Positions 8,846 to 43,413 of a stretch of 44,413 bases of DNA are shown piece after piece. Each line of letters opens with the position of its first letter. Positions within the stretch are counted from its first letter, which is position 1. The notes below the pieces were generated by a model. That model saw nothing but the letters and a program-made list of their open reading frames with translations. It did no database searches and was not told where the DNA came from. The stretch spans positions 1 to 44,413 of the forward strand of contig CAZXEM010000003.1 of assembly GCA_964639875.1 (NCBI GenBank). The letters are read 5' to 3'. Position numbers and translations under genes: made by a program. This DNA is from an uncultured Methanosarcinales archaeon (GTDB taxonomy: Archaea; Nanobdellota; Nanobdellia; Woesearchaeales; GW2011-AR9).

Positions 8846-8859
8846 TTCCCCCTCAGGAA

Positions 8860-11654: not shown

Positions 11655-11703
11655 CTTCACCTCTTTTTTAAAAAAATTAAATAACAATAATAATTTTTAC
11701 AAT

Positions 11704-16373: not shown

Positions 16374-16777
16374 TTTTATAATATTCCTCTAATTGATTAT
16401 ATAGATACCCAATATTTAAGTTAAATTAGGAGAGTTATTTAAAAATGTTTCTAGTTTAAATGACAATAATTTGGTTAGTTGAAAATCTAGATAAATAGTT
16501 TAAACTGAACTTTAATTTTTCTAGTGAAATAATTCCAAAAATCAAAGACCATTTTTTAGAGATAGTGTTACAAAAAAAGCAAATTTTAGTCTTTTTTTGA
16601 AATAAATTACAAATCTGGGCTTCTTTTACAAAAGTAAGCGTTAAAAATCTATCCACTGTAGAATATAAAAGTATTTAAATAGGTACTTTATCCCCTGGTA
16701 TGGTAAAAACTATACTAATATGGGGCAAAGTCATTAGTTTTAAGTTAAATTGTTTAAAAAAGACAAAAAAAGGTAAA

Positions 16778-17560: not shown

Positions 17561-18439
17561 ATGGTAAAAGTTGCAATTTTACATCAAGATATAGAGTGGT
17601 CAGAAAAACAATTCCAAGAAAGTTTTTCTAAAAAAAATATTGAGGTTGAGATGTATGATGTTAGAACCACTTCGCTAGATGAATTATTAAAATACGATTT
17701 AGTGATCAATAGAGTTTATGCTAGTGTAGCTAACAGAAATTACCCAGATAATTTAAAAACATTAGAACTCTTAGAAGAACTTGAAAATAATAATGTTTTA
17801 TGTTTAAATTCTGCATTAACTACCAAAGTTGATTATTTTAAAGATTATGCCGCAATGATGCAAGAAGAAGCAGGGTTAATAACTCCAAAGACAAGAATAT
17901 TTAGAAATGCAGAAGAAGCAAAGGAAATTTCTGAAGAATTAGGTTTTCCATTAATTATGAAAAGGAATACAGGTGGAAGAGCAGTAGATTTAAGAAAAAT
18001 TGATAACGAATCAGAATTAGACCAGTATTTATCTACCCATAAAAATCATTATGGTGGAGATTATATTTTACAAGAATTTTTGACAAGCAGTTTACCTTAT
18101 GATTATCGAGTTACAATTATCGAAGACCAATTAGCTTTTGCTTACAAGAGAAGTTTATTATCAGTAAATGAGGATGAAGATCCTTGGCTTGCAAGTGTTT
18201 CAAAAGGTTCAAGTAGAGAATTATGTACTCTGCCCGAAGAAGTACTTGATGTTGCATTGAAAGGAGCAAAAAGTATCAAAGCATTTTATGATTCAATGGA
18301 CATTATTGTTACGAATGAAGGACCAGCAATCATTGAACATAACCCAACCCCAAATTATAGTTGCACTGCTGAAGAAATTGAAAAAAGCGAACAGTTCATT
18401 GATGAGGTAACAGAAATAATTACCCACTATATTAATTGA
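17561..18439 (+). CDS. ATP-grasp ligase, RimK/LysX family-like
   Basis: Starts immediately after the racemase stop. The N-terminal pre-ATP-grasp domain (KVAILHQDIEWSEKQF) is colinear with LysX/RimK. Central GFPLIMKRNTGGRAVDL and a C-terminal ...IIEHNPTPN. Confidence 0.75.
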   Translation: MVKVAILHQDIEWSEKQFQESFSKKNIEVEMYDVRTTSLDELLKYDLVINRVYASVANRNYPDNLKTLELLEELENNNVLCLNSALTTKVDYFKDYAAMMQEEAGLITPKTRIFRNAEEAKEISEELGFPLIMKRNTGGRAVDLRKIDNESELDQYLSTHKNHYGGDYILQEFLTSSLPYDYRVTIIEDQLAFAYKRSLLSVNEDEDPWLASVSKGSSRELCTLPEEVLDVALKGAKSIKAFYDSMDIIVTNEGPAIIEHNPTPNYSCTAEEIEKSEQFIDEVTEIITHYIN

Positions 18440-18455
18440 AAGAGAAAATAGATAA

Positions 18456-19430
18456 ATGGACAAAATGATAAAATTAGGATTTGTTGCAGAACTGGATTTA
18501 AGAGAAGAGAACCAAAATTATCCCGTAACTAAAAAACAAATCCAAGAATATTTCGGCCCATTATCAGAACAGGGCCTAGACACATATATCTTTAGTTGGA
18601 AAAGTTTAACAGATCAAGGAACAGTAAATGAAGCATATTCAATAAATGAAGGAAAAACAAAAGAGTTAGACCTTAGTAAAGAGTTAGATATAGTTTTTAC
18701 AAAACAATTAGGCAATATCGCTAATTGCCCTCAAGAATTTCTTGATTATTTAACTTACCTGGGCAATGTTAATACCATTAAAGTCAATGAACCGGACAGG
18801 ATGAGATCAAATTTAGACAAAAACTATTTGATAAATTTACAAAAAGAAGGTTTTCCAGTAGTACCAACAGTTAATGTTTATAACCGCAAATTGGAAGAAC
18901 TTTTAGAGTATGATTTTGGAATAGAACATGAAGATATAATTTTAAAACCGAGAATATTTGGAGAATCAGGAAATGGAATTGTTAAATTATCTGATTTCAA
19001 AGGCGATGAAGAAGAATTCAACAGATATATAGACCAGAATCAACCAGTAATTGCTCAACCGATGATGAAAGAAATATTTCAAGGAGAAAAATCTTTAATT
19101 TTTTTAGGTGAAGAATTTTCTCACGGAATAACTAAAAAATCCACCACAGACAATTATAAAATTAACATTTCTTTCGGTACCGAATATGCCCGTTATTTTC
19201 CGAAACAAAATGAACTGGAGATGGCCCATAATATCATTGAACATTATAATGATCAGAATCAAATGACAAGAATAGATTTTTTAGATACTAAAGAAGGACC
19301 AAGAATTATGGAAGTTGAAAGGATAAATCCATCAACGTATACAACTCAAGTTGGCTTGGCCCACCATTTTTGTGATAACTTAGCAAAATTTATTAAAAGG
19401 GTTTACACAGAACAAAAAATTAATTATTAA
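18456..19430 (+). CDS. second ATP-grasp-like ligase (divergent)
   Basis: Central EGFPVVPT...IILKPRIFGESGNGIV (Lys/Gly-loop pattern) and C-terminal RIDFLDT..GPRIMEVERINPS (Mg/ATP acidic residues). The N-terminal domain is unassigned. Confidence 0.6.
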   Translation: MDKMIKLGFVAELDLREENQNYPVTKKQIQEYFGPLSEQGLDTYIFSWKSLTDQGTVNEAYSINEGKTKELDLSKELDIVFTKQLGNIANCPQEFLDYLTYLGNVNTIKVNEPDRMRSNLDKNYLINLQKEGFPVVPTVNVYNRKLEELLEYDFGIEHEDIILKPRIFGESGNGIVKLSDFKGDEEEFNRYIDQNQPVIAQPMMKEIFQGEKSLIFLGEEFSHGITKKSTTDNYKINISFGTEYARYFPKQNELEMAHNIIEHYNDQNQMTRIDFLDTKEGPRIMEVERINPSTYTTQVGLAHHFCDNLAKFIKRVYTEQKINY

Positions 19431-20277
19431 TTTTATTATAATTCTTACTAAACAAAGAAAGTAACTGTTGATATTTTTTATATCCTTCAGCAATGTTAGA
19501 AGAAGAAAATGTAACTTCTCGTGGATTTGAATTATTATGTTTAACAGAATCAAGATGTAAATCAATATGCGAATCAACATCTTCTAATAAATAAGCATAA
19601 GGAACTAAAACTTTCCAATGAAAAATTTGTGCTTTGAAATCAGCCCGATTAATAGTATCAACATTTTTTAAAGTGGATGCTAAACTTTCTTTAATTTCGT
19701 TAAAGACAACGTCTTTATCTTTAAGTTGAGATTGATGTTGACTCAAAGAAACTTTAGTAGTTACAGTAGGAAGGTTAGGAATTAACTGTTTTATTTCTTC
19801 AACAGCATTATTAGTACCTGAAAGGAAAATCAGTTTAACACCATTATCTTTTGCCACTAAGACATTTAATCCACTTTCTCCAAATTCAACATTATTAATA
19901 AAAACCCCAGATATTAATTTTGTACTATTGGTGTGGGCACAATAAGAATAATGTTGGTTAGCTTTTCCATGATAACCTAAGAAAATACAATAATCAACTT
20001 GTTCAATCCCTTCAAGCATTGAAGTTCTTCGTTTATGTTTGTTAACAAAATTAATCTTTGAATTTAATAATTCAGGAAGAACATTCTTTCCTGACCCGTG
20101 GGCATCAACCAAATAAACTTCTTCAACGCCATTATTAAAACAACAATTAGCAACCACATTAATTTCTTCAGTCATCAGAAGACGGGCATCTTGATATTCT
20201 TGACTAGAAGTGTTTAGAAAACTGCCACCAGTAATTCCAGTAACTCCTTCAATGTCAGCAGAAATCAATATTTTCAT
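19420..20277 (-). CDS. dppA: D-aminopeptidase, peptidase family M55 (DppA-like)
   Basis: The N-terminus MKILISADIEGVTGI...ARLLMTEEINV closely parallels Bacillus DppA (MKLYMSVDMEGISG...LIMTEEAN). The ORF track begins two codons earlier, at 20283. Confidence 0.75.
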   Translation of the reverse strand: MKILISADIEGVTGITGGSFLNTSSQEYQDARLLMTEEINVVANCCFNNGVEEVYLVDAHGSGKNVLPELLNSKINFVNKHKRRTSMLEGIEQVDYCIFLGYHGKANQHYSYCAHTNSTKLISGVFINNVEFGESGLNVLVAKDNGVKLIFLSGTNNAVEEIKQLIPNLPTVTTKVSLSQHQSQLKDKDVVFNEIKESLASTLKNVDTINRADFKAQIFHWKVLVPYAYLLEDVDSHIDLHLDSVKHNNSNPREVTFSSSNIAEGYKKYQQLLSLFSKNYNKINN

Positions 20278-20335
20278 CCCCATACTAAAATCTACAAGCG
20301 AAATTAATTTATATAACTTTCCATTTACAAGATAA

Positions 20336-20941
20336 ATGGAACCTTATTTACAAACAACCGTGTTTACTACAGCTGCTTCCTCTTTATTAACTATTTTACA
20401 TTACTTTAATCCAGAAATCAAATTAAGTAAAGATAATGAGTTCAAGATCTGGCAAAGTACAGTTATTTTGCCAACAAGAGCATCTTCAATTTTTGCCCTA
20501 GCTGATTATGCATTGAAAGAAAAATTAAATCTTCAAGTGATTGTAGAAAGTAAAAATTATGAATTCCCTGATTATCGGTTTTATCGTTATAAAAAAGAGG
20601 ATGTTGAAAACGCAACATTTTCATCAAGATTATATCTGAAAAATGCTAAAAAAAACAATTTGGAAATAGTAGAAAGAAAGATTACTTTAGATGACGTTAA
20701 AGAATTATTACTGGAAAATGTTTTGTTGTTAAGAATTAATACTAAACCCATTCGTGGAGAAAAAAGGAACACCTCAAACTTTATTGTTTTACATGGTTAT
20801 GATGGAAATTATTTTCATATTATTGATCCACAATCAGGAGGATTGTCAATTTCTGAAGAAATAATGGAAGAATCATTTTCCACTTTAGAAACTAAAAAAT
20901 ATCGTGACCATCAAATGATTGTGTTTAAGAAAAATCTTTAA
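20336..20941 (+). CDS. peptidase C39-like fold protein without any cysteine
   Basis: Has the Q-x5-[T]AASSLLTILHYF N-terminal helix pattern and VLHGYDGNYFHIIDP (His/Asp pattern) of C39/BtrH-like papain-fold domains. The protein contains no Cys. TATA (TTTATATAAC) lies about 26 nt upstream. Confidence 0.45.
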   Translation: MEPYLQTTVFTTAASSLLTILHYFNPEIKLSKDNEFKIWQSTVILPTRASSIFALADYALKEKLNLQVIVESKNYEFPDYRFYRYKKEDVENATFSSRLYLKNAKKNNLEIVERKITLDDVKELLLENVLLLRINTKPIRGEKRNTSNFIVLHGYDGNYFHIIDPQSGGLSISEEIMEESFSTLETKKYRDHQMIVFKKNL

Positions 20942-21212
20942 TCTTCCCTTGATTAACTTTAATTTTTAACAATTCTTGTTCAGAAAGTTCTTTTTTCTTT
21001 AACCAATAAGTCCCTTTGTAAGAATCTTTTGCAAGATAATTAAAATTCACTAATTCTCTTCTAAAAAGAACATAATCATCAACATTAAAAGATTGAATGA
21101 TTTCATTAACTTCTTGCTCAGTATAAACTTTTTCATCTTCAAACTTTTGCATAATCTGAGTAAGAACTGTTTGCTTTTCTAAATCGTTAGAAGGCAGAAT
21201 CATTAATTTCAT
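20925..21212 (-). CDS. DUF2087-like small protein
   Basis: The stretch YTEQEVNEIIQSFNVDDYVLFRRELVNFNYLAKDSYKGTYW matches the DUF2087 pattern (E.EVN...D...LRR.LV....L.R...G..Y). ATGA overlap with the upstream GH3 gene. Confidence 0.6.
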   Translation of the reverse strand: MKLMILPSNDLEKQTVLTQIMQKFEDEKVYTEQEVNEIIQSFNVDDYVLFRRELVNFNYLAKDSYKGTYWLKKKELSEQELLKIKVNQGKIKDFS

Positions 21213-22306
21213 TTTACATTAAACCCCTTCGCTTCAAGAATCTTTTTTACCGAATTATCAATTTGTTCTTCAGGAATGTCCCCATTAAGAACAGCTTCTT
21301 TAACAGTTTCAATCATGTGAAAAATTTCGTTAGGATCTTCGTTAAAATTAATAATTAAATCGTTACCTGCACTAAACACTGCCCGGTACAAATCTTCTTT
21401 TGAATCAAAAAATTTCTGTAAACCTAACATCATTGTATCATCAGTAATTATTAAACCGTCAAATTTTTCTTTTAAAGTGTCTACTGCTTTCTTGGAAACT
21501 ACTGCGGGCTTACCTTCAGAATTAACTTCACCATAAGAAATAACATGAGTTACCATCATCGATTTAACATCACCTTTATCACCTAAATAATTGTAAGGAT
21601 AAATATCCTCTAGAACAATTTCTGCAGTTACCATATTTTTATGAGGATCTTTGATCACTAGAGCTTTGCCTGGATAATGTTTAGCAGTAGCAATTACTCC
21701 TTGACTTTGTAATCCCAAAATATAAGCTTCAGCTAATAGAGTAATCTCTTCTTCAGTACCAGGAAAAGTTCGGCAGTTCCATATTTCATCATCTAAATCT
21801 ACAACGGGCGCATAATTAATAGTAAATCCTAAATCGTGAAGGAACTTACCTTCATCACTACCTTTTTGAAAAGCTTCACCTACATTTTTAACTTCACTCA
21901 CTGAATAAAAATCTTTAAAGTTAGCAAACGGATTCCAACATCCTTCAAGATCAACAGTAACAAAGAATGGGATGACCATATCTTCCTGAAAATCGTTGAT
22001 TGTGTTTTTGAACAGTTCTTCATCTTTCATTGCAAAAAGATGGATCCCACCAATTTGCATATTTTTCCAAACATTCAAATTGTGTCTACCGCCATGGACA
22101 ATTACCATTTGAGCAATTTTCTGTTCTAAAGTTAAATCGTTAAGATTGACAGTGTTGTCTTGGATAGGGATAGGATTTTGTTCTGGAATTAACCAACCTT
22201 TAGCTTTAGCTACGTTCAACGTTCCGAGAACAAGAACTAAAACAATCAGAATTAGGAAAACTATTTCACTTCTTGTCCTTCCCTTTTTGTTATTATTTTT
22301 GACCAT
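21209..22306 (-). CDS. membrane-anchored glycoside hydrolase family 3 (NagZ-like beta-N-acetylhexosaminidase) domain protein
   Basis: N-terminal TM anchor (IVFLILIVLVLVLGTL). GH3 motifs KHYPGK...DPH, MMVTHV and ITDDTMM. Confidence 0.8.
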   Translation of the reverse strand: MVKNNNKKGRTRSEIVFLILIVLVLVLGTLNVAKAKGWLIPEQNPIPIQDNTVNLNDLTLEQKIAQMVIVHGGRHNLNVWKNMQIGGIHLFAMKDEELFKNTINDFQEDMVIPFFVTVDLEGCWNPFANFKDFYSVSEVKNVGEAFQKGSDEGKFLHDLGFTINYAPVVDLDDEIWNCRTFPGTEEEITLLAEAYILGLQSQGVIATAKHYPGKALVIKDPHKNMVTAEIVLEDIYPYNYLGDKGDVKSMMVTHVISYGEVNSEGKPAVVSKKAVDTLKEKFDGLIITDDTMMLGLQKFFDSKEDLYRAVFSAGNDLIINFNEDPNEIFHMIETVKEAVLNGDIPEEQIDNSVKKILEAKGFNVK

Positions 22307-31311: not shown

Positions 31312-32394
31312 TTAGAAAAGATACTTAACAAAATATAATAGTTTCGGTTCTTTAACAATTGTTTTCAAAATGAGTGGTAAAGGGTTCTCCCGAGTATGTT
31401 TTTCAAAAACATTTTGAATTTTTTTCTTTCTTAACAATTGAATAGCTTTATCCCAATCCTGATCAGAGAACTTATTCATAACCTTTCTTAAACGTAAATG
31501 TAAATTCATTTTTTTGCGTAAACTTTTAACTTCTTGATCATACTCTTTACCATTGTTAAGACAATCAACTAAGATGTGAACTTGTTTCATCCCGGGAATA
31601 ACCCCACCCAAAGTAGTTGCTTTAACGTAACCAGAAGCATCACCTAACAAGTAACAATTGCCCCTCCTGAGTTTTTGTTGAGGATGATAAAGAGGGATAG
31701 TCCCTGCCTGAATTTCTTCAGCAATAAAGCCCTGTTCTTTCATAAACTTATCAAAGTGAGGTCGTGTGTTTTTAGTTGTAGCTAAGCCAACTCTAGCCCT
31801 GTCTGAGGATTCAGGAACGATCCAAGCAAACAGTTCTGGACAAACTTCTTTACCAAAAAAAGTTTTATACCTATATGGATGAAAATTTCCTTTCACAACT
31901 GCCTGAATCCCATAATAATTTTTTCTTTCGGAATGATAAAAACCATAAGCTTTAGCCACATGAGATAAAGGGCCATCAGCAGCAATAACAATGTCTGGAG
32001 AGATTATTATTTTTTGACCATTACTTCCTTTAATAATAATTTTATCTTTCTCTTTACCCAAAAAGTTGCTGCTAAAAAATATTTTAGCACCAGCATTCAA
32101 AGCCAATTTGGCTAAATAATTATCAAACTTTTTTCTACAAACCAAATATTCTTTGTTATTGATTACCATTTGATTATTGCTAGAATTAACTTCGATTTCA
32201 GTAAAACTATTTACTAAAAAAGAACTTTTATCTAATCCAAATTGATCAAAATCTGCAGTTAATAAACCGGTACATTGAACTGGAGAACCAACTTCTTTCT
32301 TCCGCTCATAAATGTTCACGTCATGTCCAGATTTAGCTAATAAATAACCTGCATAACAACCGATTGGACCCGCACCAATAATTACAATTTTCAT
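31312..32394 (-). CDS. geranylgeranyl reductase family flavoprotein (isoprenoid lipid saturation)
   Basis: N-terminal FAD fold MKIVIIGAGPIGCYAGYLLAKSGHDVNIYE, then ...PVQCTGLL, ...LLGDASGYV. Confidence 0.85.
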   Translation of the reverse strand: MKIVIIGAGPIGCYAGYLLAKSGHDVNIYERKKEVGSPVQCTGLLTADFDQFGLDKSSFLVNSFTEIEVNSSNNQMVINNKEYLVCRKKFDNYLAKLALNAGAKIFFSSNFLGKEKDKIIIKGSNGQKIIISPDIVIAADGPLSHVAKAYGFYHSERKNYYGIQAVVKGNFHPYRYKTFFGKEVCPELFAWIVPESSDRARVGLATTKNTRPHFDKFMKEQGFIAEEIQAGTIPLYHPQQKLRRGNCYLLGDASGYVKATTLGGVIPGMKQVHILVDCLNNGKEYDQEVKSLRKKMNLHLRLRKVMNKFSDQDWDKAIQLLRKKKIQNVFEKHTRENPLPLILKTIVKEPKLLYFVKYLF

Positions 32395-32469: not shown

Positions 32470-32540
32470 AGATAAAAAAAGAAAAAAAGAAAAAATTGGA
32501 GGAAGATAGTTAAGATAACTTACTTAATTAATAGTAAGTT
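32470..32540 (-). terminator. hairpin plus oligo-T terminator of the S-layer-like gene
   Basis: An 8-bp stem AACTTACT/AGTAAGTT (32517-32524 / 32533-32540) encloses the stop codon. On the transcript it is followed by T-runs (TTTTTTCTTTTTTTCTTTTTTTATC). Confidence 0.5.
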
Positions 32541-33856
32541 TTCTCTTCGTCTTCTTCGTCGTCTCTCTTAAGTCTACTGAAACCAATAATCAAACCAATG
32601 ATAACTAATAATACCACTAAGATGATTAATGCGATTTCTAAACCGTTTCTTAAGCTAAAACCACTTTCAACAGTAGCGCCAGTAACAGTTGCTTTTAGGC
32701 TGATTGTTTCTAATACTTCAGCACCGGACTGAACAGCTAGACTAGTAACATGTTCTCCAACAGCAGCAGATGCGCTAGGAGTTACGTCTACATAGACTAC
32801 TTTATTCTTTCCAGGTTCTAAAACAACTAAATTGTCACTTACAGTTGCAGTTGCCCAATCGCCAGTAACTGTTTCTAACAAATATGCTTTGGAACTAGTT
32901 CCTGCATTTGTTAAAGCAATAGCGTATTTAGCAGTAGTTCCTGCAGCTACAGTTTGACTTTCTGGACCAACAGCTAAAACTAACTTGTTTTCACTTGTTT
33001 GAAACATTTCGTTACTTAAAACGTTAATTTTGTAGCTCTTAGTAACTGTTTCTCTTAAGTCATCGTATTTAACAGTAACTTTAACTTCATACTCACCTTC
33101 AACAGCAGTTGCTGGAAGAGGTAAGAACATTTCTGGAACATCTTCATAATCTACATTATTATCTTCTGTTTCCACAACATCAACAAACTCAGTTGCACTC
33201 ACGCCTAAAGCGGGTACTGCAACAGTAACTTTAACGTCTTTCTCAGTCTTGTCACCGAAGTTTTCAAGTAAAACAGTAGTTAATAATGAACGTCCTGCTT
33301 TAACTGAAGTTCCAGGTGAAAATACAACGTCAGCGATATCTACGCCGTGTCGAGTTGGTTCAACGTTAAGCTTTACAATCTGCGTTACAGGTGCAGAATT
33401 ACTATTGTAAATATTTAGATGTAACCAATAAACTTGCTTTTCTAATTTCTTTGGTAAGTCAACGCTTAACTTCACAGTTTTCTTAGTATTTCCTGCCATG
33501 TCAAAAACATGTGTTGAATCACTTAATGATTCGTAGTCAGAATACTCGTATCCTTTGATCTTTGCATCAACTTCAATATCTTCTACAGCTTCACCAGTCT
33601 GTAGTCGAACTTTAATATCTAATGTTTGACCTTCGTCAACACTAATAGAAGGCACAGCAACATCACCGATGCCAATGTCTTCACCAATTATGTTTCCTTC
33701 TTCATCAACTATATTAATTACGTTAGTTCCTAAGTCAACAGAATCTCCGTTAACTTCTACTTCCCATTCAAAATTGTCTACACTAAGCGCACTAACCATT
33801 GAAACGGTCAATAAGGCCAATACAAACAAAACCATTAAACTCAAAATTTTTCTCAT
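32528..33856 (-). CDS. S-layer-like surface protein with C-terminal TM anchor and acidic tail
   Basis: I use the ATG at 33856 with GGAGG about 8 nt upstream; the track start at 33871 is TTG. Signal peptide, repeated beta-domains with N-x-G motifs (LLENFGDKT, ALTNAGTSS), and a C-terminal IALIILVVLLVIIGLIIGF + RLKRDDEEDEE. Confidence 0.7.
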   Translation of the reverse strand: MRKILSLMVLFVLALLTVSMVSALSVDNFEWEVEVNGDSVDLGTNVINIVDEEGNIIGEDIGIGDVAVPSISVDEGQTLDIKVRLQTGEAVEDIEVDAKIKGYEYSDYESLSDSTHVFDMAGNTKKTVKLSVDLPKKLEKQVYWLHLNIYNSNSAPVTQIVKLNVEPTRHGVDIADVVFSPGTSVKAGRSLLTTVLLENFGDKTEKDVKVTVAVPALGVSATEFVDVVETEDNNVDYEDVPEMFLPLPATAVEGEYEVKVTVKYDDLRETVTKSYKINVLSNEMFQTSENKLVLAVGPESQTVAAGTTAKYAIALTNAGTSSKAYLLETVTGDWATATVSDNLVVLEPGKNKVVYVDVTPSASAAVGEHVTSLAVQSGAEVLETISLKATVTGATVESGFSLRNGLEIALIILVVLLVIIGLIIGFSRLKRDDEEDEEKTYY

Positions 33857-34004
33857 TTTAACTTCCTCCAATTTCCACGTTTTTTTCGAAGATTGTGTTT
33901 TTTTTTAATTTAATCTTCTAAATTTGTGGTCCTATATAAACTTTTCTATTCTTTTAGTATTCAAGAGTAGCTACATTATGTAGCCATTCTCAAATGGTTG
34001 TCAT

Positions 34005-37000
34005 TCAATAGATAGTTAAGAGCCTATATGTTGACTCATGATACTCACTATTGGTAACAGTTACTTTGACAAGATAATCTCCTGGTTGAGCATTGTAAGG
34101 CATCTGTAAAACCAAGTTCTTGCTTTTTTGTTGTCCTGCCTTTAAGTCAAACTCTCCACCGGATTTTTTCAATCCTAAATCATAAACTAAAGCGGTAACT
34201 TTAAGGTCCTTCAACTTCTTATCACCATTATTTTTCATGTTAACTTGTAACGAAACATGCTCACCAGCGTTAGCAACTTCGGTACTCAACTTTACTGTTG
34301 CCAATTTAATGTTCTTGTAAGCTTCGCTAACACCAATAGTAAACTGCTGTTGAGCATACAACTGGCCGTCTGAGACGGTAATTAACACTTTTGCTTTCCC
34401 ATTATCAGTTGGTTCCCATTCAACCAATCCACTCTCACCAATAGTCATCCCTTCTGGTGCTTTAGAAAGGTAATAAATTAGTTTTTCTCCTTCTGGATCT
34501 GCTGCAACTAACTGATAACTGTAATCTTCATCTTCAGTAACGGTTGTTACTGGTTGTGAATAAATTACGGGTGCTTGATTAACAATAACAATTGTACACA
34601 AATCACCAATTCCATCACTGTTAGAATCTAACTGATCAGGATTAGCAGTTAAAGGACAATTGTCAACTTCATCACAAACACCATCATTATCAGCGTCTGA
34701 TAAACAAGGAATAACTTCACAAGCATCGCCAACACCATTATCATCACTGTCTAATTGATCAAGATTAGCAGTTAAAGGACAATTGTCATCTTCATCACAA
34801 ACACCATCGTTATCTGTGTCTACTAAACAAACAATTTCTTCACAAGCGTCACCAATTCCATCCATGTTAGAATCTAACTGGTCAGGGTTAGCAGTTAAAG
34901 GACAGTTATCATCTTCATCACAAACACCATCTTCATCGGTGTCTAATAAACAAGGTGTATCCAAAACCAAAATAGTGATTTTAACTTTTTTCGAAGAATT
35001 TGCTCCATGTTCGTCTTTTGCAACAAAAGTAACAAAGTAATCCCCCGCTTCACCAACATAAGTTTTCCACTGGAAAACATAAACATTTTCTTTTGTTGGG
35101 TGAGGACCTAAAACAATGTTTTTATTTAAAGCAATCCTTGAAGCTAATTCTAAAGTAATTTCATCACCATCTGAATCAGTTACTCCAATTTCAAACTCAA
35201 GACTATTACCTTCAGTAACTTCTTGATTTGGAAGGGGAGCAATCCGAGGTGCGTGATTAACAACAACAATTGTACAAGCGTCACCAATCCCATCCATGTT
35301 AGAATCTAACTGGTCAGGGTTAGCAGTTAAAGGACAGTTATCAAATTCATCACAAATACCATCGCCATCAGTATCACCATAAATATCTAAACAAGATAAT
35401 TCACAAGATTCAGTAACTGAAAATTGATAAGTTTCACTTACACTAGTTAATCCATCACTGATTACAACATCAAATTCGTACTTTCCACTATCATCACAAT
35501 CTGAAGTACCAGTAATTAGTAATTCATTTCCTGATTGTTGAGAGGAAACCCATTCTTCTGGTAAACCATTTACAACAAAGCTAAGTTCATCTTCAGCATC
35601 TCCATCAGTAGCAGTAACAGTTAATACAAGTGATTCACCTTCATCAACTATATCATTACCATTAATACTTAATGCAGGCATTTGGTTAACGTCATCAACT
35701 TTAACAAGAATAGTTTTAGTTGCATACAAGTTACCATCTGAAGCAGTAAAGACAAGTGTAACACTTTGACTTAACTTAGGATGAGTTACGTAAGTATAAT
35801 CTGGTTGCCAGGAAAATAAATAATTATTTTTGGCTGTTGCCGCTAAACTATATGGTTCTGAAAATTCAGTAGTAAAACAGTAAATACCGAAAAGAAGACA
35901 TTTCTTAACACCAACAGTTAAAGTATTGAATTCATCATCTTCAATTTCGAACTGTAAAGCCATACTTCCGCCTTCAACTAAATTGTAATTACCACCAATG
36001 TCATCTATGAACTCAGGAGCTTGGTTTACAGGCGCTTCAGGACATCCATTATTTGTTGCAGGCCCAGGTTCATTTGGACATAAATCCTGGTCATTAGGAG
36101 TACCATCTCCATCTGAATCAGAATCACAAACATCACCAATACCATCATTATCAGTATCTGCTTGGTTTGTATTTGCAATTAAAGGACAATTATCTTTCCA
36201 ATTGTAGATTCCGTCGTTATCTGCATCAGAGTCACAAGCGTCTCCCCAGCCATCTCCATCAACATTAGATTGATCAGGATTAAAAGTCATTGCGCAATTA
36301 TCATCTTCATCCATAATAACGTCATTGTCATCATCAGGATCACAAACATCGCCAACGCCATCATTTTCATTATCTGCCTGATTTGTGTTAGGAATGAACT
36401 GACAATTATCATTTACATCTAAGATGCCATCATTATCATCATCTAAATCACAAGCATTTCCTTCACCATCATTATCAGTGTCAGTTTGAAGAATGTTTTC
36501 ATCATTAATACAATTATCACAAACATCGCCATAACCATCATTGTCAGCATCTTCTTGATTAGGATTTTCGTTAGCGTAACAATTATCTTCATAATCAAGA
36601 ACGCCATCACAATCATAATCAGAACTACCTTCTCCACAAAGATCACCAACAACATCTAAGTTTAGTGAATGTGTTTGTGCACTAGTAGCGCTGTACTTAT
36701 CATCTAAAGTTATGGTAATAGTATATTCTCCCATTTTGTGATTATAATTAGCTGGACTAATAACTAAATTATAAGGAGAAGTAATTTGTTGATCATTTAA
36801 CAAAACCTTAATGTTAGCACCGTCAATTAATTTTACGGTTGCATAAATTGGATCTGCGGAAGCAAATAATCCAGTAGTGAATGAAACAGAGTCACCATTA
36901 CTGATCGTAGTACTTGTTCCTCCATTATCCCATTGCAGTTCCCCAGAAGGCCAAATTAAAGCCAGGGCAGCAGGAGATAATAAAAACATAAGCACTACAA

Positions 37001-37046
37001 TTAAAACAATTGTTTTATACGTAGTTTTCATTTTATGTAACCTCAT
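34005..37046 (-). CDS. large secreted adhesin with thrombospondin type-3 (Ca-binding) repeats, Ig/cadherin-like domains and a C-terminal CARDB-like domain
   Basis: More than 15 D-x-D-x-DG-x-x-D-x-x-D-N-C-P...N-x-x-Q repeats (e.g. DTDNDGIGDVCDSDSDGDG). NQAP...-initiated Ig-like modules and a signal peptide. ATGA overlap with the upstream gene. An alternative ATG at 37031 has GAGGT 8 nt upstream. Confidence 0.8.
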   Translation of the reverse strand: MRLHKMKTTYKTIVLIVVLMFLLSPAALALIWPSGELQWDNGGTSTTISNGDSVSFTTGLFASADPIYATVKLIDGANIKVLLNDQQITSPYNLVISPANYNHKMGEYTITITLDDKYSATSAQTHSLNLDVVGDLCGEGSSDYDCDGVLDYEDNCYANENPNQEDADNDGYGDVCDNCINDENILQTDTDNDGEGNACDLDDDNDGILDVNDNCQFIPNTNQADNENDGVGDVCDPDDDNDVIMDEDDNCAMTFNPDQSNVDGDGWGDACDSDADNDGIYNWKDNCPLIANTNQADTDNDGIGDVCDSDSDGDGTPNDQDLCPNEPGPATNNGCPEAPVNQAPEFIDDIGGNYNLVEGGSMALQFEIEDDEFNTLTVGVKKCLLFGIYCFTTEFSEPYSLAATAKNNYLFSWQPDYTYVTHPKLSQSVTLVFTASDGNLYATKTILVKVDDVNQMPALSINGNDIVDEGESLVLTVTATDGDAEDELSFVVNGLPEEWVSSQQSGNELLITGTSDCDDSGKYEFDVVISDGLTSVSETYQFSVTESCELSCLDIYGDTDGDGICDEFDNCPLTANPDQLDSNMDGIGDACTIVVVNHAPRIAPLPNQEVTEGNSLEFEIGVTDSDGDEITLELASRIALNKNIVLGPHPTKENVYVFQWKTYVGEAGDYFVTFVAKDEHGANSSKKVKITILVLDTPCLLDTDEDGVCDEDDNCPLTANPDQLDSNMDGIGDACEEIVCLVDTDNDGVCDEDDNCPLTANLDQLDSDDNGVGDACEVIPCLSDADNDGVCDEVDNCPLTANPDQLDSNSDGIGDLCTIVIVNQAPVIYSQPVTTVTEDEDYSYQLVAADPEGEKLIYYLSKAPEGMTIGESGLVEWEPTDNGKAKVLITVSDGQLYAQQQFTIGVSEAYKNIKLATVKLSTEVANAGEHVSLQVNMKNNGDKKLKDLKVTALVYDLGLKKSGGEFDLKAGQQKSKNLVLQMPYNAQPGDYLVKVTVTNSEYHESTYRLLTIY
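34596..34964 (-). repeat. three tandem 123-nt (41-aa) repeat units inside the adhesin gene
   Basis: Units start at 34596, 34719 and 34842. Each encodes C-L-x-D-x-D-x-DGVCDE-x-DNCPLTAN-x-DQLDS...G-x-GD-x-C. Confidence 0.85.
35274..35343 (-). repeat. dispersed 70-nt copy, 69/70 identical to 34842-34911
   Basis: Hand alignment shows a single T/C difference (caatTcc vs caatCcc). Confidence 0.85.
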
Positions 37047-38203
37047 TCTTCTTTTTCTACAGGACAGTAACCCAATTTAATCCAGAACTGAGGATCAATC
37101 TTGTTAAAGTCAGTTGCAGCACCAATGTAAGGTGCTAAACATAATTTTTCAGATAACTTGATTGGAACATCAATACCAAACAAAAGTGCATGAGTGGTAT
37201 CCATTTTTTCCGGTGACTGGTTATCGTTATGTTGATAAGTTTCTAAAACAGTACCGTTAGAATCCCTAATTTCTTCATGTCGACTTTTGCCTTCTTTACC
37301 AAAACCAACTTGATAACCGGCGCTTCCTAAAATTCCAAATTTCTTAAACATTTTACCCATGTTTACTTTTGCTGCAAAATATTTTTGTTGAATTTCTTTC
37401 TCACCATCAGTGTGTAATGTTCCTAAAGCAGTTTCAACAGGATCTTTAGAATCATCTAAAGTATAATTTTTCCCAAGGAAACCTAATTCTAATCCCCAAA
37501 CAAAAGTGGAATTAGTTACTCGATTGTAACCAACAACTCCGCCAGGAACAAATACATTATTATCAGTATCATACTGTCCTACAAATCCAACATAAACAAG
37601 ATCAGTTGTTCTTGCTACGGTTGAAGGAGCAATTACTTCTTCTAAAGTTTTATTTCCTGGAACTTGAAAACTTTGCCTTTCTATTTTTTCAACTTTAACT
37701 CCAGTATTACCAGGAGTAGCAGCAACTTTTTCAGCAACAATAGTTCCTAAATTAGTAAAAACAGTTTCACCTTCTGGACTGTTAACTCTTGATTCAGTAG
37801 TTTCACATCGACCATTTTCATTAGCATCATGGCATAACTCAAGACCTTTCTCAACTGGTAAAACCACCCATTGATAATCGTCAAAATGACCTAAAAAGTT
37901 ATCCATGTTTTGTGTTCTTGGACTATGGTCAGCAACTAAATCTTTAATCTCGCATTTGATACCACCATAAACATCTGCTGCGTTTTCAGCAGTAATTTCT
38001 ACTCTATCTCCTTCAACAGGAACATAAAATAAGTTTGTAGTTTCGGAAGTTGCTTTCTTTGCACCAGTAATAGAAACATTAGTTTCAGTTTCAACAGTAC
38101 TTTCAACTGGTTTTTCTGCTTCTTGTGCAGAAGCAACACCTGCTCCATAACTAAGTCCTGCAGCAATTACTGCAGCTCCAAATAATTTTTTTAGACCATT
38201 CAT
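37043..38203 (-). CDS. secreted protein; C-terminal roughly 190 aa resemble an 8-stranded OMP-type beta-barrel
   Basis: Sec signal with AQ cleavage (GAGVASA/QE) and GGAGG SD. The C-terminal half has about 8 alternating-hydrophobic strands (WGLELGFLG, YFAAKVNMG, SAGYQVGFG, LLFGIDVPIKL, LAPYIGAATDF, FWIKLGY). Confidence 0.6.
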   Translation of the reverse strand: MNGLKKLFGAAVIAAGLSYGAGVASAQEAEKPVESTVETETNVSITGAKKATSETTNLFYVPVEGDRVEITAENAADVYGGIKCEIKDLVADHSPRTQNMDNFLGHFDDYQWVVLPVEKGLELCHDANENGRCETTESRVNSPEGETVFTNLGTIVAEKVAATPGNTGVKVEKIERQSFQVPGNKTLEEVIAPSTVARTTDLVYVGFVGQYDTDNNVFVPGGVVGYNRVTNSTFVWGLELGFLGKNYTLDDSKDPVETALGTLHTDGEKEIQQKYFAAKVNMGKMFKKFGILGSAGYQVGFGKEGKSRHEEIRDSNGTVLETYQHNDNQSPEKMDTTHALLFGIDVPIKLSEKLCLAPYIGAATDFNKIDPQFWIKLGYCPVEKEE

Positions 38204-38204
38204 T

Positions 38205-39011
38205 TTATTCCTCCTTACCTAAAGGTTTGTACAGTAATGATTTTCGAAATGTTTCCATTTCATCAAAACTTTGTAGAGTTTTCAAATGAGCAAAATCAAA
38301 CAGTTGCCCACCGGTAGTATAATTTTTGATCCTTTCCGAAGGATCACACTTTCCATTTTCTAACATTGCATCAATGTAAGGTTTACGATCGCCGTCAAAC
38401 AAAACTTGACCGATACCGTCTGTACAGAAATACACGCCTTCTTTAGTAACATCAATAATTACTGGAACGCCATGCTGGTCAACAAGTTCTTTCTGCATTT
38501 CCCATTTAACAACCCGAGGATCATAAGTGTCCTCAACAGGGTCAAGTTTTGCAGTAGGTCCTTCTTCAGCCACTAGTTCAGTTACAGGTTCGGCTGCAGG
38601 TTCGGCTGCAGGTTCAACTACTTCTTCAGCTGCAGGCTCATCCATAATTTCATCTAAGTTTGCATCTGCAGGAACCATTTCTAGGGTCATTTCCCCTTCA
38701 GCTTCAGTTACTTCAACTGGTTGTTCAGCAACTGCAGTATCAACAGGTGCAAAATAAGTATCGTTAGCTGCAACTGCTTGCGCGTAAAGTGATTCTTGTA
38801 ATGGTTTATTTTCAGCAAACTGTTTTTCAGTAAGATAAACTGGTTTTGCATCAACAGTAGAATTGTAAACTACCACATTCATTTTAGGGTTACTAACATC
38901 TGATTTGATGTTGTACATCCATGGTGTACAAGATGCAAATAACATTGCTGCTCCTGCCAAAACCAGGGATCCTTTTCCAACAAGATGATCAAGATTTTTT
39001 CTTATTTTCAT
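38205..39011 (-). CDS. predicted lipoprotein with Ala/Glu/Pro-rich linker
   Basis: Signal ending in MLFASC (lipobox-like) and GGAGG SD. AEPAAEPAAEP linker encoded by a 12-nt tandem repeat at 38585-38615. Confidence 0.6.
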   Translation of the reverse strand: MKIRKNLDHLVGKGSLVLAGAAMLFASCTPWMYNIKSDVSNPKMNVVVYNSTVDAKPVYLTEKQFAENKPLQESLYAQAVAANDTYFAPVDTAVAEQPVEVTEAEGEMTLEMVPADANLDEIMDEPAAEEVVEPAAEPAAEPVTELVAEEGPTAKLDPVEDTYDPRVVKWEMQKELVDQHGVPVIIDVTKEGVYFCTDGIGQVLFDGDRKPYIDAMLENGKCDPSERIKNYTTGGQLFDFAHLKTLQSFDEMETFRKSLLYKPLGKEE

Positions 39012-39034
39012 TTTTTATTCCTCCAAATAATTAT

Positions 39035-40324
39035 TTAATCACGTAAAAATGCACAATTATACTTAACGCAATCTTTAGGTTGACATTCTTTTTCTTTGTA
39101 AACTTCTTTTTCTATAATCTCAGGTGCAGGACAAGTTTTAGTTGGACAAGTTGTCTCCCGAGCAATTTTTAGTTTACTTTCACAACTAGCTAAGTCATCG
39201 CTTGCAGTTTCAAATTGTTTTTTGTAACTAGCATTGTCGTCATTATTATTTTTAGCATCAATTAAATTTTGATTACACGTTCGATAAGATTGAAGACACT
39301 CATCAAGCGTACCTTTCTTGAAAGCAGCTAAAGCGTCACAGTCAGCAAGACCATCTGCACAGGATCCTAATTCTCCCCATAAATAATCAACTTCGCCAAG
39401 ACAAGTAAGAGTTGAACCAATGTTAGCAGAATTATCATCTTCACAAGTAGCATAATCTGTTTTACAATCATTATTTTTAATTTGACAGGCAATCAAAGAA
39501 AGAGACTTTTTATCTAACGCTTCTCCTCCTGTAGCAATTGTCTCTTTTGCTTTACCTAATTGTAACCCTAAACCCTCATTTGATGTAGATAACTGGTTAT
39601 TTCTCCGAGTTAAACTTTCATTCTCTTTAACAACTTGAACATAAGCAGGATTGCCTTCAACAGGGACAAACGATTTTTCACCATGATATTCAATGTAAGC
39701 GTTAGTTCCAAACAAACTAATTGTAGCTCCTAATAAGAAACCAACAAGACCATATTTCATTTTTCCATTTGATTTATCTTCTTTCATTTTTTCATACCCT
39801 CCTGGGCCGTTAACATCTTCAGGTATCCCTGTTAATTCTTCACTTTTTTGTTCCACTGGTTCACTTTTTTGTTCCGGAAGATTAGGTGGAACATTTGGTA
39901 GAACAGTTGTTTCTTGTTTTTCATTATCTACAACAACTGCTGCTTCGTAAACGGTATCATCATTTTTTTTCTCAGAATCAGCACTTTCATTAAAATTAGC
40001 TTGTTCTCCTGGTTGTCCTGAAGTTTGTTCTTCTGGTATAAACCAGGCTGTATTATCAAAATCGTTATTAGGATTACTTTCCTCTGATGTGGGTTCATCG
40101 GTTGGTTCATTTTTTAGAACTGGCTTATCACTAAAGTAAATTTCTAAATATTCAACAAATTCTTTAGTGTTGCCCGGAACTTCTTTACCTTCAACAGTTG
40201 TCGAATAAATAATGCCGTCGTCTTTAATTAATGAATCTGATTCATTAAGAGCAATGACAATTTCTTCCTCACTCCTACCTATTTTTTCCACCAATAAATC
40301 TATTGTATCGTTTCTATTACCCAT
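39035..40324 (-). CDS. single-pass membrane protein: acidic cytoplasmic N-domain, extracellular coiled/Cys-rich domain
   Basis: I use the ATG at 40324 preceded by GGGGTGGA; the track start at 40351 is TTG. TM helix YGLVGFLLGATISLFG. The C-terminal roughly 200 aa contain about 16 Cys. Confidence 0.6.
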   Translation of the reverse strand: MGNRNDTIDLLVEKIGRSEEEIVIALNESDSLIKDDGIIYSTTVEGKEVPGNTKEFVEYLEIYFSDKPVLKNEPTDEPTSEESNPNNDFDNTAWFIPEEQTSGQPGEQANFNESADSEKKNDDTVYEAAVVVDNEKQETTVLPNVPPNLPEQKSEPVEQKSEELTGIPEDVNGPGGYEKMKEDKSNGKMKYGLVGFLLGATISLFGTNAYIEYHGEKSFVPVEGNPAYVQVVKENESLTRRNNQLSTSNEGLGLQLGKAKETIATGGEALDKKSLSLIACQIKNNDCKTDYATCEDDNSANIGSTLTCLGEVDYLWGELGSCADGLADCDALAAFKKGTLDECLQSYRTCNQNLIDAKNNNDDNASYKKQFETASDDLASCESKLKIARETTCPTKTCPAPEIIEKEVYKEKECQPKDCVKYNCAFLRD

Positions 40325-40501
40325 ATTTAATCCACCCCACACTATAACCAAATTATAAATACTACTCTGAAGTAGACACCCCTATATAAATGTTTTGCAA
40401 TAATTGTTAAAACGGAGTAGTAACTGCAAGTGAGAGGTGAAAATCGACTAAAAACGAGATTAGAACAGTAAAAAATTAAAATTAAAAACGGTTAAACACA
40501 T

Positions 40502-41910: not shown

Positions 41911-42546
41911 ATGAAATATACTGAAGAATTAGCTGAAATTATCGGCATCATGTTAGGAGATGGATGTTTGTGTAAAGCCAAAAAAGGAAATAACACCTAC
42001 AGCACAATAATTACTTCTGGGAAAAATGAAAAGCATTGGATTAATTACGTTAAGAATCTATTTGCAGACTACTTTAATCAAACTTTTAAAATAGTAGAAA
42101 TAAAATATGGATTACAAGCAAGAAATTATAGGGGTAATGTTGCTGAACACCTAATAAAAGCTGGCTTACACCATGGAAACAAAATAAACAACAAAGTAGA
42201 AATTCCGCCATGGATATTTCAAAAGAGAAAATTCTTATTAAAAGCAGTGCAAGGTTTATTTGATACAGATGGGTGTGTTTACAACAAATACGGAAACTAT
42301 GCACAAATAGAATTTAAGTTTGGTTGTATTGAAACAACAAGTTCTGTTCACAAAGCCGTTAGTAGTTTAGGATTCAACCCCACAAAAATACAAAGACAAA
42401 TCCATAGTATTACTGGAAGATTTCTGTGGAGATTTTATCTTTCAAGACAAGGAGAAATAGACTTATTTTTTCAGAAAGTGAAACCCAAGAATCAAAAGCA
42501 TCAATTAAGATACAAAAAAATAAAAAGTGGGGACACTGGGATTTGA
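41911..42546 (+). CDS. double-motif LAGLIDADG homing endonuclease
   Basis: Motif 1 LAEIIGIMLGDGCL and motif 2 LLKAVQGLFDTDGCVY are about 100 aa apart. 211 aa, the size class of single-chain I-DmoI-type enzymes. GGAGGT SD. Confidence 0.85.
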   Translation: MKYTEELAEIIGIMLGDGCLCKAKKGNNTYSTIITSGKNEKHWINYVKNLFADYFNQTFKIVEIKYGLQARNYRGNVAEHLIKAGLHHGNKINNKVEIPPWIFQKRKFLLKAVQGLFDTDGCVYNKYGNYAQIEFKFGCIETTSSVHKAVSSLGFNPTKIQRQIHSITGRFLWRFYLSRQGEIDLFFQKVKPKNQKHQLRYKKIKSGDTGI

Positions 42547-42698
42547 ATTTCTGAACAATAAGCATTCACTTACCATTTCCCAGATCTAAGGCTGACTTCA
42601 GGGAAAGATTATTCATCGCTTTTCAGCTCATCTCTCCATTACTGGAGGCCCCGATTCTACCAGACTGTACGGACTTAAATCCTTTATACTATGTCCCC
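42528..42698 (-). tRNA. tRNA-Trp(CCA) gene with three insertions (putative introns)
   Basis: Minus strand: acceptor GGGGACA/UGUCCCC + A73; D-loop AGUCUGGUA; anticodon arm GGGGC-CUCCAG[48 nt]A-GCCUU; T arm CUGGG[31 nt]UUCAAAU-CCCAG. An extra roughly 19 nt lies between positions 9 and 14. TATA-like TTAATAAA sits 25 nt upstream, and T5 follows the 3' end. Confidence 0.6.
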
Positions 42699-42722
42699 AC
42701 AATTATCAAAGAATCTAGCCTG

Positions 42723-42730
42723 TTTATTAA
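42723..42730 (-). promoter_or_regulatory. TATA-like box (TTAATAAA on minus strand) for tRNA-Trp
   Basis: 25 nt upstream of the predicted tRNA 5' end at 42698. Confidence 0.4.
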
Positions 42731-42804
42731 GTTTTTTGTTTTTTTATATCCATCTTCTGAATAATACAAATCTTTATATTTTAAACCTCTTTATTTAGGA
42801 AATC

Positions 42805-43413
42805 ATGAAAACAACTTACTTAATCTTAACGGCAATTCTTAGTGCAACTTTAAGTTTTGGTTGTAATAAAACAGAACCAGTTCAGAAAGAAGCAAGCAAA
42901 TTAGAAGAAACCATTAGTAAAACAGAAAAATCAAGTGAACTTGAAAAAGCTCTTGCTAATGAAGAAGAAGCTGTTACTAAATGTGAAAAAAGAAGGGGTA
43001 AGGTATTTATTAGCTACGGCAGTAAAGATTGTGCCCAAGGATACGGAGCCAGAGAAATTGTAACTTGTCTGACTGGATCAAATCTTAGTGTTAATAGTTT
43101 TGGTTTTCCATGTGATAACATTCCAGAGAATAGCGAGGAGAGATGGATAGCAAATTGCCAAGAAGTTTCTGGTGAAGTAGTACAAAAGTATGAAGCAGAA
43201 AAACATCTTTACAAAGATTCTTCTAAGGACAACCAAAGTTGCTTTTGGGTTAGAGAATGCGTTCCAGAAGACCCAAAACTAAGTTGGGGACCATTAGCTG
43301 ACCTCTTTAAACAAATTCCTTGTGACTTTAGTTCTACTGCTAGTTTAAAAGTCAAAGAAATAAAACATTTCTCAAATCCTTGTTATTGCTCCATTGGTGG
43401 CGGCCCTATTTAA
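42805..43413 (+). CDS. predicted lipoprotein, Cys-rich
   Basis: Signal ending in LSFGC (lipobox), then a Glu/Lys-rich linker and a domain with about 12 Cys. Confidence 0.6.
   Translation: MKTTYLILTAILSATLSFGCNKTEPVQKEASKLEETISKTEKSSELEKALANEEEAVTKCEKRRGKVFISYGSKDCAQGYGAREIVTCLTGSNLSVNSFGFPCDNIPENSEERWIANCQEVSGEVVQKYEAEKHLYKDSSKDNQSCFWVRECVPEDPKLSWGPLADLFKQIPCDFSSTASLKVKEIKHFSNPCYCSIGGGPI

Follow-up and report, generated by a model that had tools for sequence, protein, structure and literature searches.

A syntenic archaeal envelope operon encoding a TSP3-repeat adhesin and a protein with a predicted OMP-like β-barrel

The g1–g4 operon and its signals

The subject of this study is a group of four genes, g1 to g4, on the minus strand of a 44,413-nucleotide stretch of DNA (hereinafter the window), comprising positions 1 to 44,413 of contig CAZXEM010000003.1 (GenBank assembly GCA_964639875.1) from an uncultured Methanosarcinales archaeon (placed by GTDB in Woesearchaeales, GW2011-AR9). 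They code for a Cys-rich protein (g1), a lipoprotein (g2), a protein with a predicted β-barrel (g3) and an adhesin with thrombospondin type 3 (TSP3) repeats (g4), and are followed by a gene for a further surface protein (g5). All four products are predicted to be exported or membrane-bound. As argued below, we favor, at about even confidence, the interpretation of this group as a native, vertically inherited archaeal envelope operon encoding a four-part surface adhesion complex, with a barrel resembling those of outer-membrane proteins (OMPs) at its base.

The open reading frames (ORFs) are g1 (40324→39035; 429 aa), g2 (39011→38205; 268 aa), g3 (38203→37043; 386 aa) and g4 (37046 or 37031→34005; 1013 or 1008 aa, with 37031 as the likely start). 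A previous reading of this DNA made from the letters and ORFs only (hereinafter the sequence-only reading) had described four co-directional, tightly coupled genes, and these are indeed present: the g2 stop and the g3 ATG are separated by a single nucleotide, and g3 and g4 share an ATGA overlap at 37046–37043. It had further placed the Shine–Dalgarno (SD) sites within the ends of the upstream genes, which is true of g3, whose GGAGG lies within the end of g2, but not of g2, whose GGAGG lies in the 23-nt spacer following g1 rather than in g1 itself. Likewise, while the ATGA overlap exists, translation of g4 probably starts at 37031 and not at the overlapping ATG, because the g4 orthologues begin with MKTF... 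and the ATG at 37031 is preceded, 8 nt upstream, by GAGGT. Both g2 and g3 terminate in ...KEE (38205–38213 and 37043–37054), in the case of g2 because the SD of the next gene, AAGGAGGAA, reads as Lys-Glu-Glu; their orthologues likewise possess acidic or basic tails (EEE, NEK, DKK).

A TATA-like box, TTTATATA, at 40383–40390 (minus strand), 66 nt 5′ of the g1 ATG, is the putative promoter of the operon. The same octamer is found 26–31 nt 5′ of several other start codons across the window (e.g., 12933, 14931, 20308 and 22689), a spacing which points to mostly leaderless archaeal transcripts; genes lying inside operons, and a small number besides, rely on SD sites of the GGAGG type. As g5 is preceded by its own TTTATATA box at 33940, g1–g4 form one transcription unit and g5 another. 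A perfect palindrome, GCTACAT-A-ATGTAGC (33968–33984), lies about 20 nt 3′ of the g4 stop and 5′ of the g5 TATA box and could be a terminator or a protein-binding site. A plus-strand ORF antisense to g4 (34783–35040) is regarded as spurious.

The TSP3 adhesin g4 and the surface protein g5

The largest product of the operon, g4 (~1008 aa), begins with a signal peptide and a conserved N-terminal domain, continues with TSP3 blocks interleaved with Ig/cadherin-like domains, and ends in a C-terminus with He_PIG and NEW3/CARDB-like domains; it has no membrane anchor. It matches TSP_3 (PF02412) over 9 stretches with an E-value of 4.7e-72 and 237.8 bits (cutoff 25), along with He_PIG, Big_9 and NEW3, and displays 15 Ca-binding motifs of the DxDxDG type, which place it among the TSP3-repeat proteins. 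Its earlier description as a TSP3-repeat adhesin is in line with this match. A 123-nt tandem repeat (34625–34953, minus strand; 2.7 copies at 82% identity) encodes duplicated 41-aa TSP3 units at about residues 700–818, a sequence pattern indicating that these units were recently duplicated and that the TSP3 array expands in situ. The g4 orthologues contain 15, 5 and 1 TSP3 motifs, the single motif occurring in locus L012 (GCA_016213985.1). Hence, the TSP3 repeats do not belong to the conserved core of g4.

The adjacent g5 (32528–33856, minus strand; 442 aa) is a putative S-layer protein, with a signal peptide, NEW3/CARDB-like domains and a transmembrane (TM) anchor at its C-terminus. Its dS between the two close clades compared below is 0.17, as against 0.45–0.85 for its neighbors, with a protein identity of 95%; this low value might stem from high expression imposing strong codon constraint, or from the two clades having recombined recently.

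The Cys-rich membrane protein g1 and the lipoprotein g2

The g1 protein has no signal peptide, and its 14 cysteines are all C-terminal. A hydrophobic stretch of about 20 residues at ~192–212 is evident by eye, though a 19-residue Kyte–Doolittle scan (threshold 1.6) did not flag it. We accordingly treat g1 as a putative type-II single-pass membrane protein with an acidic cytoplasmic N-terminal domain, a TM helix, an extracellular coiled-coil-like region and a Cys-rich C-terminus. It evolves fast: its positional orthologues in L012 and in a second distant locus, L013, retain this architecture at only 18–24% identity. A match of its N-terminus to designer PPR proteins (E 5e-5) was judged to be helical or compositional. 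For g1, g2 and g3 alike, searches with the whole proteins and the split domains recovered nothing relevant in Pfam (E<=10) or in NCBIfam.

In g2 a lipobox, LFAS|C28, precedes a cysteine that is invariant in four lineages, the motif being LFASC in the window, LLASC in the close sister clade (clade B), YAASC in L013 and NIGC in L012 (in an extended ORF). Thus, g2 has the motif of a lipobox lipoprotein, with lipidation predicted. The types assigned to these two products in the sequence-only reading, a Cys-rich anchored protein and a lipoprotein, therefore hold, with the TM segment of g1 putative. The C-terminal domain of g2 is characterized by the conserved motif L-x-NG-x-C-D-x-x-ERI-x-NY and has a dN/dS of 0.045 (0.16 for the whole of g2), and its acidic Pro/Ala linker is found in this clade alone. 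Phmmer and profile searches of the PDB sequences returned no matches for g2 or g3. A weak match between the g2 C-terminal domain and the g3 N-terminal domain (BLASTP E 0.004; hhalign E 5.8e-4, probability 29%) suggests that the two proteins may share a domain.

The predicted β-barrel of g3

The g3 protein has an AXA signal peptide (residues 1–26), indicative of secretion via Sec, followed by two domains. The first, an α/β domain at about residues 44–165, contains a loop of the form C-x-D-x-N-x-N-G-x-C-[DE]-x-x-E, which resembles a single TSP3 or EF-hand-like Ca site; a disordered linker (166–199) leads from it into the second. The latter (residues 200–380; 37064–37606, minus strand) is predicted to be an 8-stranded antiparallel barrel of the OmpX/OmpA type. 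With six sequences including distant homologues, AlphaFold2 (AF2) modeled it as long antiparallel strands grouping into eight, at a pLDDT of 74–84. In Foldseek searches of the PDB with this model, 50 of the 50 best matches were transmembrane β-barrels, led by OmpX (E 1.5e-6; target-normalized TM-score 0.76) and followed by Ail, the OmpA TM domain, the OprF barrel, NspA and larger barrels.

The strands are 11–25 residues long, with 10–15% Gly and 8–12% aromatic residues, a length and composition typical of OMPs, and the last of them ends in [LI]-x-[LV]-G-Y in 4/5 aligned sequences, with a tail of 5–8 residues after it. An alternating (dyad) hydrophobicity is conserved in several strands but is clear in only about half of them, and such a pattern also occurs in soluble β-proteins. 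The domain might therefore be no membrane barrel at all but a soluble or oligomeric one, such as a module that binds lipids or isoprenoids or is associated with the S-layer, or else a modeling artefact, with the operon as a whole encoding S-layer-associated surface proteins. The shallow sequence alignment, the moderate model confidence, a first AF2 run at a pLDDT of 28, the lack of an OMP sequence signal and the S-layer-type appearance of the envelope all speak for this reading. It is countered by the absence of any soluble 8-stranded barrel from the 50 best fold matches, by the OMP-like strand lengths and composition and by the conserved terminal G-Y, and we consider it unlikely. If it were right, the locus would be an ordinary lineage-specific adhesin operon.

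On the strength of the model, g3 residues 200–380 probably form a closed OMP-like barrel; whether this barrel is embedded in lipid in vivo is, in our estimation, about evenly balanced. The OMP-like barrel proposed earlier for the C-terminal half of this 386-aa protein is upheld at the level of the predicted fold (the OmpX, Ail, OmpA, OprF and NspA matches and a pLDDT of 74–84). At the level of sequence, a comparison of the barrel alignment with OmpX and Ail by hhalign gave a probability of 0.2%. The barrel is under marked constraint (dN/dS 0.15), and one of its loops, SRHEEIRD-NG-VLETYQH, is nearly identical in the distant homologue P0039, which is 48% identical. OmpX/OmpA-type transmembrane β-barrels are regarded as a hallmark of the outer membranes of bacteria, mitochondria and plastids.

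Composition and codon usage

That barrel fold, which is otherwise found almost only in the outer membranes of bacteria and organelles, lends weight to the proposal of the sequence-only reading that the operon is a bacterial OmpA-type module, horizontally acquired and split into separate genes. Part of the case for it was compositional. The window has a GC content of 31.5%, with the operon at 35.6% and the remainder at 30.8%, and its genes individually lie 1.1–2.6 SD over the other genes. The two hand counts offered for a "much more GC-rich" operon (33/60 at 38581–38640 and 11/60 at 14401–14460) are exact on recomputation; they are, however, extremes, the former falling in a 12-nt tandem repeat (38576–38640, minus strand; 5.4 copies) that encodes the (EPAA)n-like acidic Pro/Ala linker of g2, and the real contrast is that between 35.6% and 30.8%.

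This excess is confined to codon positions 1 and 2: GC1 of the operon genes is 0.49–0.60 against a background of 0.42 and GC2 is 0.35–0.38 against 0.30, while GC3 (0.195, 0.147, 0.227 and 0.173 in g1–g4) is at or below the background of 0.206±0.033. A similar shift in GC1 and GC2 is seen in several other genes of the window, such as g5 and gpsA. Between the operon and the remainder of the window, synonymous codon usage correlates at r=0.965; the per-gene values of 0.89–0.96 lie within the 0.84–0.96 of the other genes. The combination of raised GC1 and GC2 with native GC3 and codon usage indicates that the composition reflects the amino-acid make-up of extracellular proteins rather than foreign DNA, and the compositional argument for the latter, examined through both GC content and codon usage, falls away.

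Phyletic distribution, synteny and selection

The setting of the operon is archaeal. The window encodes ABCE1/RLI, Cbf5 (DKCLD+TruB+PUA), aIF5B and a geranylgeranyl reductase (GGR), and aS21 and EF1B are found in the flanks of orthologous loci. The g2 protein is recorded in 33 blocks of a public assembly collection, from which we fetched loci from Saanich Inlet and other marine samples; the lineage has been sampled from marine oxygen-minimum-zone waters and from groundwater. In all fetched loci the order is uniform: RTC, an amino-acid permease, g1–g4, g5 and GGR. As the operon with these same flanks is present on more than 30 independent assemblies, the bacterial/archaeal mis-assembly that had earlier been entertained is excluded.

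In a word-indexed search of 5.8 billion proteins, g1, g2 and g3 matched close orthologues only, and scanning 1.84 billion cluster representatives exhaustively with g3 in HMMER added just three clusters (P0038, P0040 and the fragment P0039), each directly upstream of a g4-like adhesin. Neither these word-indexed searches nor the g3 scan yielded a bacterial homologue of g1–g3. A metagenome scan with P0040 found nothing, and a candidate locus from the scan with P0038 (L011) was set aside as spurious, as it holds a HipA-like toxin and a low-complexity ORF.

The distant relatives preserve the same block. L013–L015 code in succession for RTC, the permease, a g1-like protein (353 aa), a lipoprotein (194 aa), a g3-like protein (428 aa), a TSP3/cadherin adhesin (966 aa), a g5-like protein and GGR, and L012 for a g1-like protein, a lipoprotein, a g3-like protein (397 aa), a PKD/Big_9 adhesin (720 aa, with its 1 TSP3 motif), a g5-like protein and GGR; the fragment L016 has a g3-like and then a g4-like gene. 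Thus, every detectable relative of g3 lies within the same archaeal synteny block. The divergence spanned by these loci is considerable: the L013 proteins are 47% (permease), 48% (GGR) and 27% (g3) identical and those of L012 are 61% (GGR) and 29% (g3) identical. Across the deep lineages as a whole, identity is 47% for the permease, 47–61% for GGR, 56–66% for g5, 36–42% for g4, 27–36% for g3, 32–45% for g2 and 18–24% for g1, making g5 the best-conserved gene of the block. The retention of the block order at such distances indicates that the operon is old and was vertically inherited.

Between the window's clade and the close clade B, identities are 89% for the permease, 52% for g1, 83% for g2, 87% for g3, 79% for g4, 95% for g5 and 82% for GGR. 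The dS of the operon (0.45–0.49) is near that of its neighbors, and dN/dS is 0.66 for g1, 0.16 for g2, 0.20 for g3 and 0.26 for g4, as compared to 0.07–0.16 in the flanks; g2, g3 and g4 are under purifying selection. From these comparisons, the conserved core consists of g2 and g3, the two terminal domains of g4, and also g5.

These results bear directly on the bacterial proposal. Its recent-transfer version is refuted by the native GC3 and codon usage, the archaeal TTTATATA box, the absence of bacterial homologues of g1–g3 from the proteins searched and the deep synteny; nor are the traits of a recent genomic island present, as GC3 is native, synteny is kept in all relatives and the LAGLIDADG gene is on the far side of the permease, not in the operon. 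In favor of some bacterial ancestry, the barrel gene does adjoin the TSP3 gene as the earlier reading had it, an adjacency that echoes the barrel–TSP3–OmpA proteins, namely those of Dai et al. 2017 as cited in PMC6593220 and Myxococcus TraB (PMC12045341), and the TSP3 region aligns with myxobacterial MtsC at 313 bits. An OmpA module split into genes is nevertheless not what we observe. OmpA_C (PF00691) matched none of the four proteins or their split domains even at E<=10, and no OmpA_membrane (PF01389) or OMP_b-brl profile matched in Pfam or NCBIfam, leaving a barrel similarity at the fold level only, in keeping with the hhalign result against OmpX and Ail. The TSP3 repeats reside in g4 and not in the barrel polypeptide, g3 having only its one TSP3-like Cys-bounded loop; the g3 barrel is C-terminal to another domain, so the domain order differs as well; and the TSP3 copies themselves vary between lineages (15/5/1) and expand in situ through the 123-nt repeat. 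A transfer so old that its sequence signal has been lost is the form in which a bacterial origin retains some likelihood, and we hold it to be quite improbable. In sum, the genes, protein types and counts of the sequence-only reading stand and its GC contrast does not, while of its interpretation the barrel is retained and the recent horizontal transfer and the split OmpA are not.

A gene for a free-standing LAGLIDADG endonuclease and a 202-aa ORF (41911–43413, plus strand) separate the permease from RTC, immediately outside the envelope block. They are found in the window's clade only (L006–L008) and are absent from clade B and L013; this segment is a clade-specific insertion.

A model for the surface complex and its alternatives

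We posit that g1, through its TM helix and coiled-coil/Cys-rich stalk, g2, through its lipid anchor, and g3 might form a membrane-proximal base, which would keep the anchorless Ca-binding g4 on the cell surface, either next to the g5 S-layer or passing through it. The g3 barrel could act in this base as a hydrophobic anchor or a docking platform, and its conserved protruding hairpins may bind a fixed partner, g4 or g2, in the way that OmpX and Ail use their protruding sheet. The variable parts, namely the fast-evolving g1 and the TSP3/Ig array of g4, would set the specificity of binding to particles or other cells.

Operon structure, export signals, conservation, selection and the predicted fold are what the analysis shows; the physical complex of the four proteins and the role of the barrel are inferred. 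Several points weigh against this interpretation. In a monoderm archaeon enclosed by an S-layer, no location is known for a lipid-exposed β-barrel, and three types of anchor (TM helix, lipid and barrel) in one membrane look redundant. The barrel itself rests on one AF2 model from 6 sequences with a mean pLDDT of 63.6 and a pTM of 0.38, AF2 on 4 near-identical sequences having given a pLDDT of 27.8, and there is no sequence link to an OMP family, either in Pfam (no match at E<=10) or in a search of the PDB sequences with the family profile (0 matches). Finally, the pooled codon usage of the operon is slightly further off than that of random gene sets (p about 0.01).

The apparent excess of anchors would be better accommodated by two membranes. 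On this alternative the operon encodes a tether between two membranes or two cells, with g1 and g2 in the cytoplasmic membrane, the g3 barrel in a second bilayer (the archaeon's own outer membrane or that of a partner or host cell) and g4 mediating Ca-dependent adhesion, as an analogue of TraA/TraB or of a bacterial trans-envelope system. Small 8-stranded barrels such as OmpX and OmpA can insert into bilayers without BAM in vitro, and the OMP-like fold of g3, with strands bearing alternating hydrophobic faces, is of the kind required. TraAB provides an architectural precedent (PMC12045341), and archaea with double membranes are known, all of them interacting closely with other organisms, but without recognized β-barrel OMPs (PMC4243693); a tentative "possible distal relative" of a porin-like family in Altiarchaeales is the sole case that we found in the literature (PMC12228718). 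The window's bacterial-type GpsA and its D-aminopeptidase/GH3/racemase cluster (see below) are also weakly compatible with unusual lipids or the use of bacterial walls. Yet g5 resembles a membrane-anchored S-layer protein, typical of monoderm archaea, and neither the 44 kb window nor the fetched flanks showed Omp85/BamA or any other gene for outer-membrane biogenesis. Further, the strong conservation of the barrel and its loops, noted above for both dN/dS and P0039, favors a fixed partner over an arms race with a host. On balance we regard the tether as a possibility, though a doubtful one, and prefer the single-surface adhesion complex.

We would similarly bet against, without dismissing, the more far-reaching idea that g3 contains a true lipid-embedded OMP-type barrel, encoded since before a family- or order-level radiation, which distally anchors an adhesion machine spanning the envelope or linking cells. 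If true, it would imply either an unrecognized barrel-bearing second membrane in these archaea or a self-inserting barrel placed in a partner's membrane, which would make the machine an archaeal counterpart of TraAB-type membrane coupling. An archaeal family with an OMP fold would also bear on whether β-barrel membrane proteins are confined to membranes derived from bacteria. More generally, a conserved archaeal family with this fold, encoded beside S-layer-like and lipid-saturation genes, would bear on how uncultured archaea build their envelopes and attach to other cells, and the locus defines three orphan families (g1, g2 and g3) and a testable complex.

Other features of the window

A bacterial-type NAD(P)H-dependent sn-glycerol-3-phosphate dehydrogenase, GpsA, is encoded at 7337–8281 (minus strand; 302.9 bits against NF000942, cutoff 257), and the geranylgeranyl reductase gene of the block lies at 31312–32394. 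The presence of GpsA on an archaeal contig bears on the "lipid divide", as lipids based on glycerol 3-phosphate are not the archaeal norm. A cluster at 16700–22306 codes for an Asp/Glu-type racemase (CuyB/TIGR00035-like), two RimK/GshB-like ATP-grasp ligases, a DppA-like D-aminopeptidase (M55) and a GH3 β-N-acetylhexosaminidase-like enzyme. This complement suggests a metabolism of D-amino-acid peptides and amino sugars, for either the salvage of bacterial walls or the synthesis of a D-amino-acid polymer.

A second envelope cluster (8315–12903, minus strand) encodes four unannotated proteins: one of 399 aa anchored at its N-terminus, a polytopic one of 653 aa whose large ectodomain contains Cys, a lipoprotein of 289 aa with the lipobox LLVGC, and a secreted one of 176 aa; searches with the 289-, 399- and 653-aa proteins gave no Pfam or NCBIfam matches. 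In the distant relative L013 (523–1659 and 12868–14514), an RVT_1 reverse-transcriptase gene lies near the block, and a single ORF of 548 aa matches both the PyrB (OTCace) and PyrI domains and would be a fused aspartate carbamoyltransferase.

Comparison with known systems

In the SlaA/SlaB S-layer of Sulfolobales, a membrane-anchored coiled-coil stalk holds a large outer protein, and the two are encoded by adjacent genes. The putative membrane-anchored coiled-coil stalk of g1, encoded in the same operon as a large outer protein, is similar in this respect; however, the topology, domains and sequences are unrelated, and a separate TM-anchored S-layer-like protein, g5, is already present at the locus. 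With OmpX/Ail/Lom and the N-terminal barrels of OmpA and OprF, g3 shares the predicted fold of residues 200–380. Its long protruding hairpins resemble the "fishing rod" of OmpX, and the Ail barrel has a role as an adhesin. Unlike these proteins, g3 has no sequence similarity to the group, its barrel follows another domain and is succeeded by a tail of 5–8 residues, and neither an outer membrane nor BAM is known in its archaeal host.

The TSP3 block of g4 scores 313.4 bits against MtsC (NF047638), a protein of Myxococcus cell–cell cohesion, which is below the equivalog cutoff of 350. In contrast to MtsC, g4 has neither MYXO-CTERM nor another sorting tag, and its N-terminal domain, Ig/cadherin-like domains, He_PIG and NEW3 are unrelated. 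A parallel in overall plan is offered by Myxococcus TraA/TraB, which pairs a Cys-rich lipid-anchored receptor with a barrel–TSP3 protein (PMC12045341), and by the OmpA proteins with TSP3 repeats in Bacteroidota and Proteobacteria (Dai et al. 2017, as far as cited in PMC6593220). As in these systems (PMC12045341), one operon for surface adhesion would here bring together a barrel, TSP3 repeats that bind Ca, a stalk protein rich in Cys and a protein anchored by lipid. The differences are that OmpA_C is absent, that barrel and TSP3 are on separate polypeptides, that there is no PA14-like variable domain, no MYXO-CTERM and no detected homology, and that TSP3 is dispensable here, the L012 orthologue having but one motif.

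TSP3 adhesins and surface proteins have already been reported in marine archaea (PMC6461757, PMC6593220). Those of Ca. Poseidoniales MGII and Nitrosopumilus are, like g4, secreted archaeal proteins implicated in adhesion or the extracellular matrix, but the two papers do not describe their genes as sharing an operon with those for a lipoprotein, a barrel protein and a TM protein rich in Cys (PMC6461757, PMC6593220). The present system can best be regarded as a novel form of cell-surface adhesin system, in which three orphan families, g1, g2 and g3, accompany a TSP3 adhesin.

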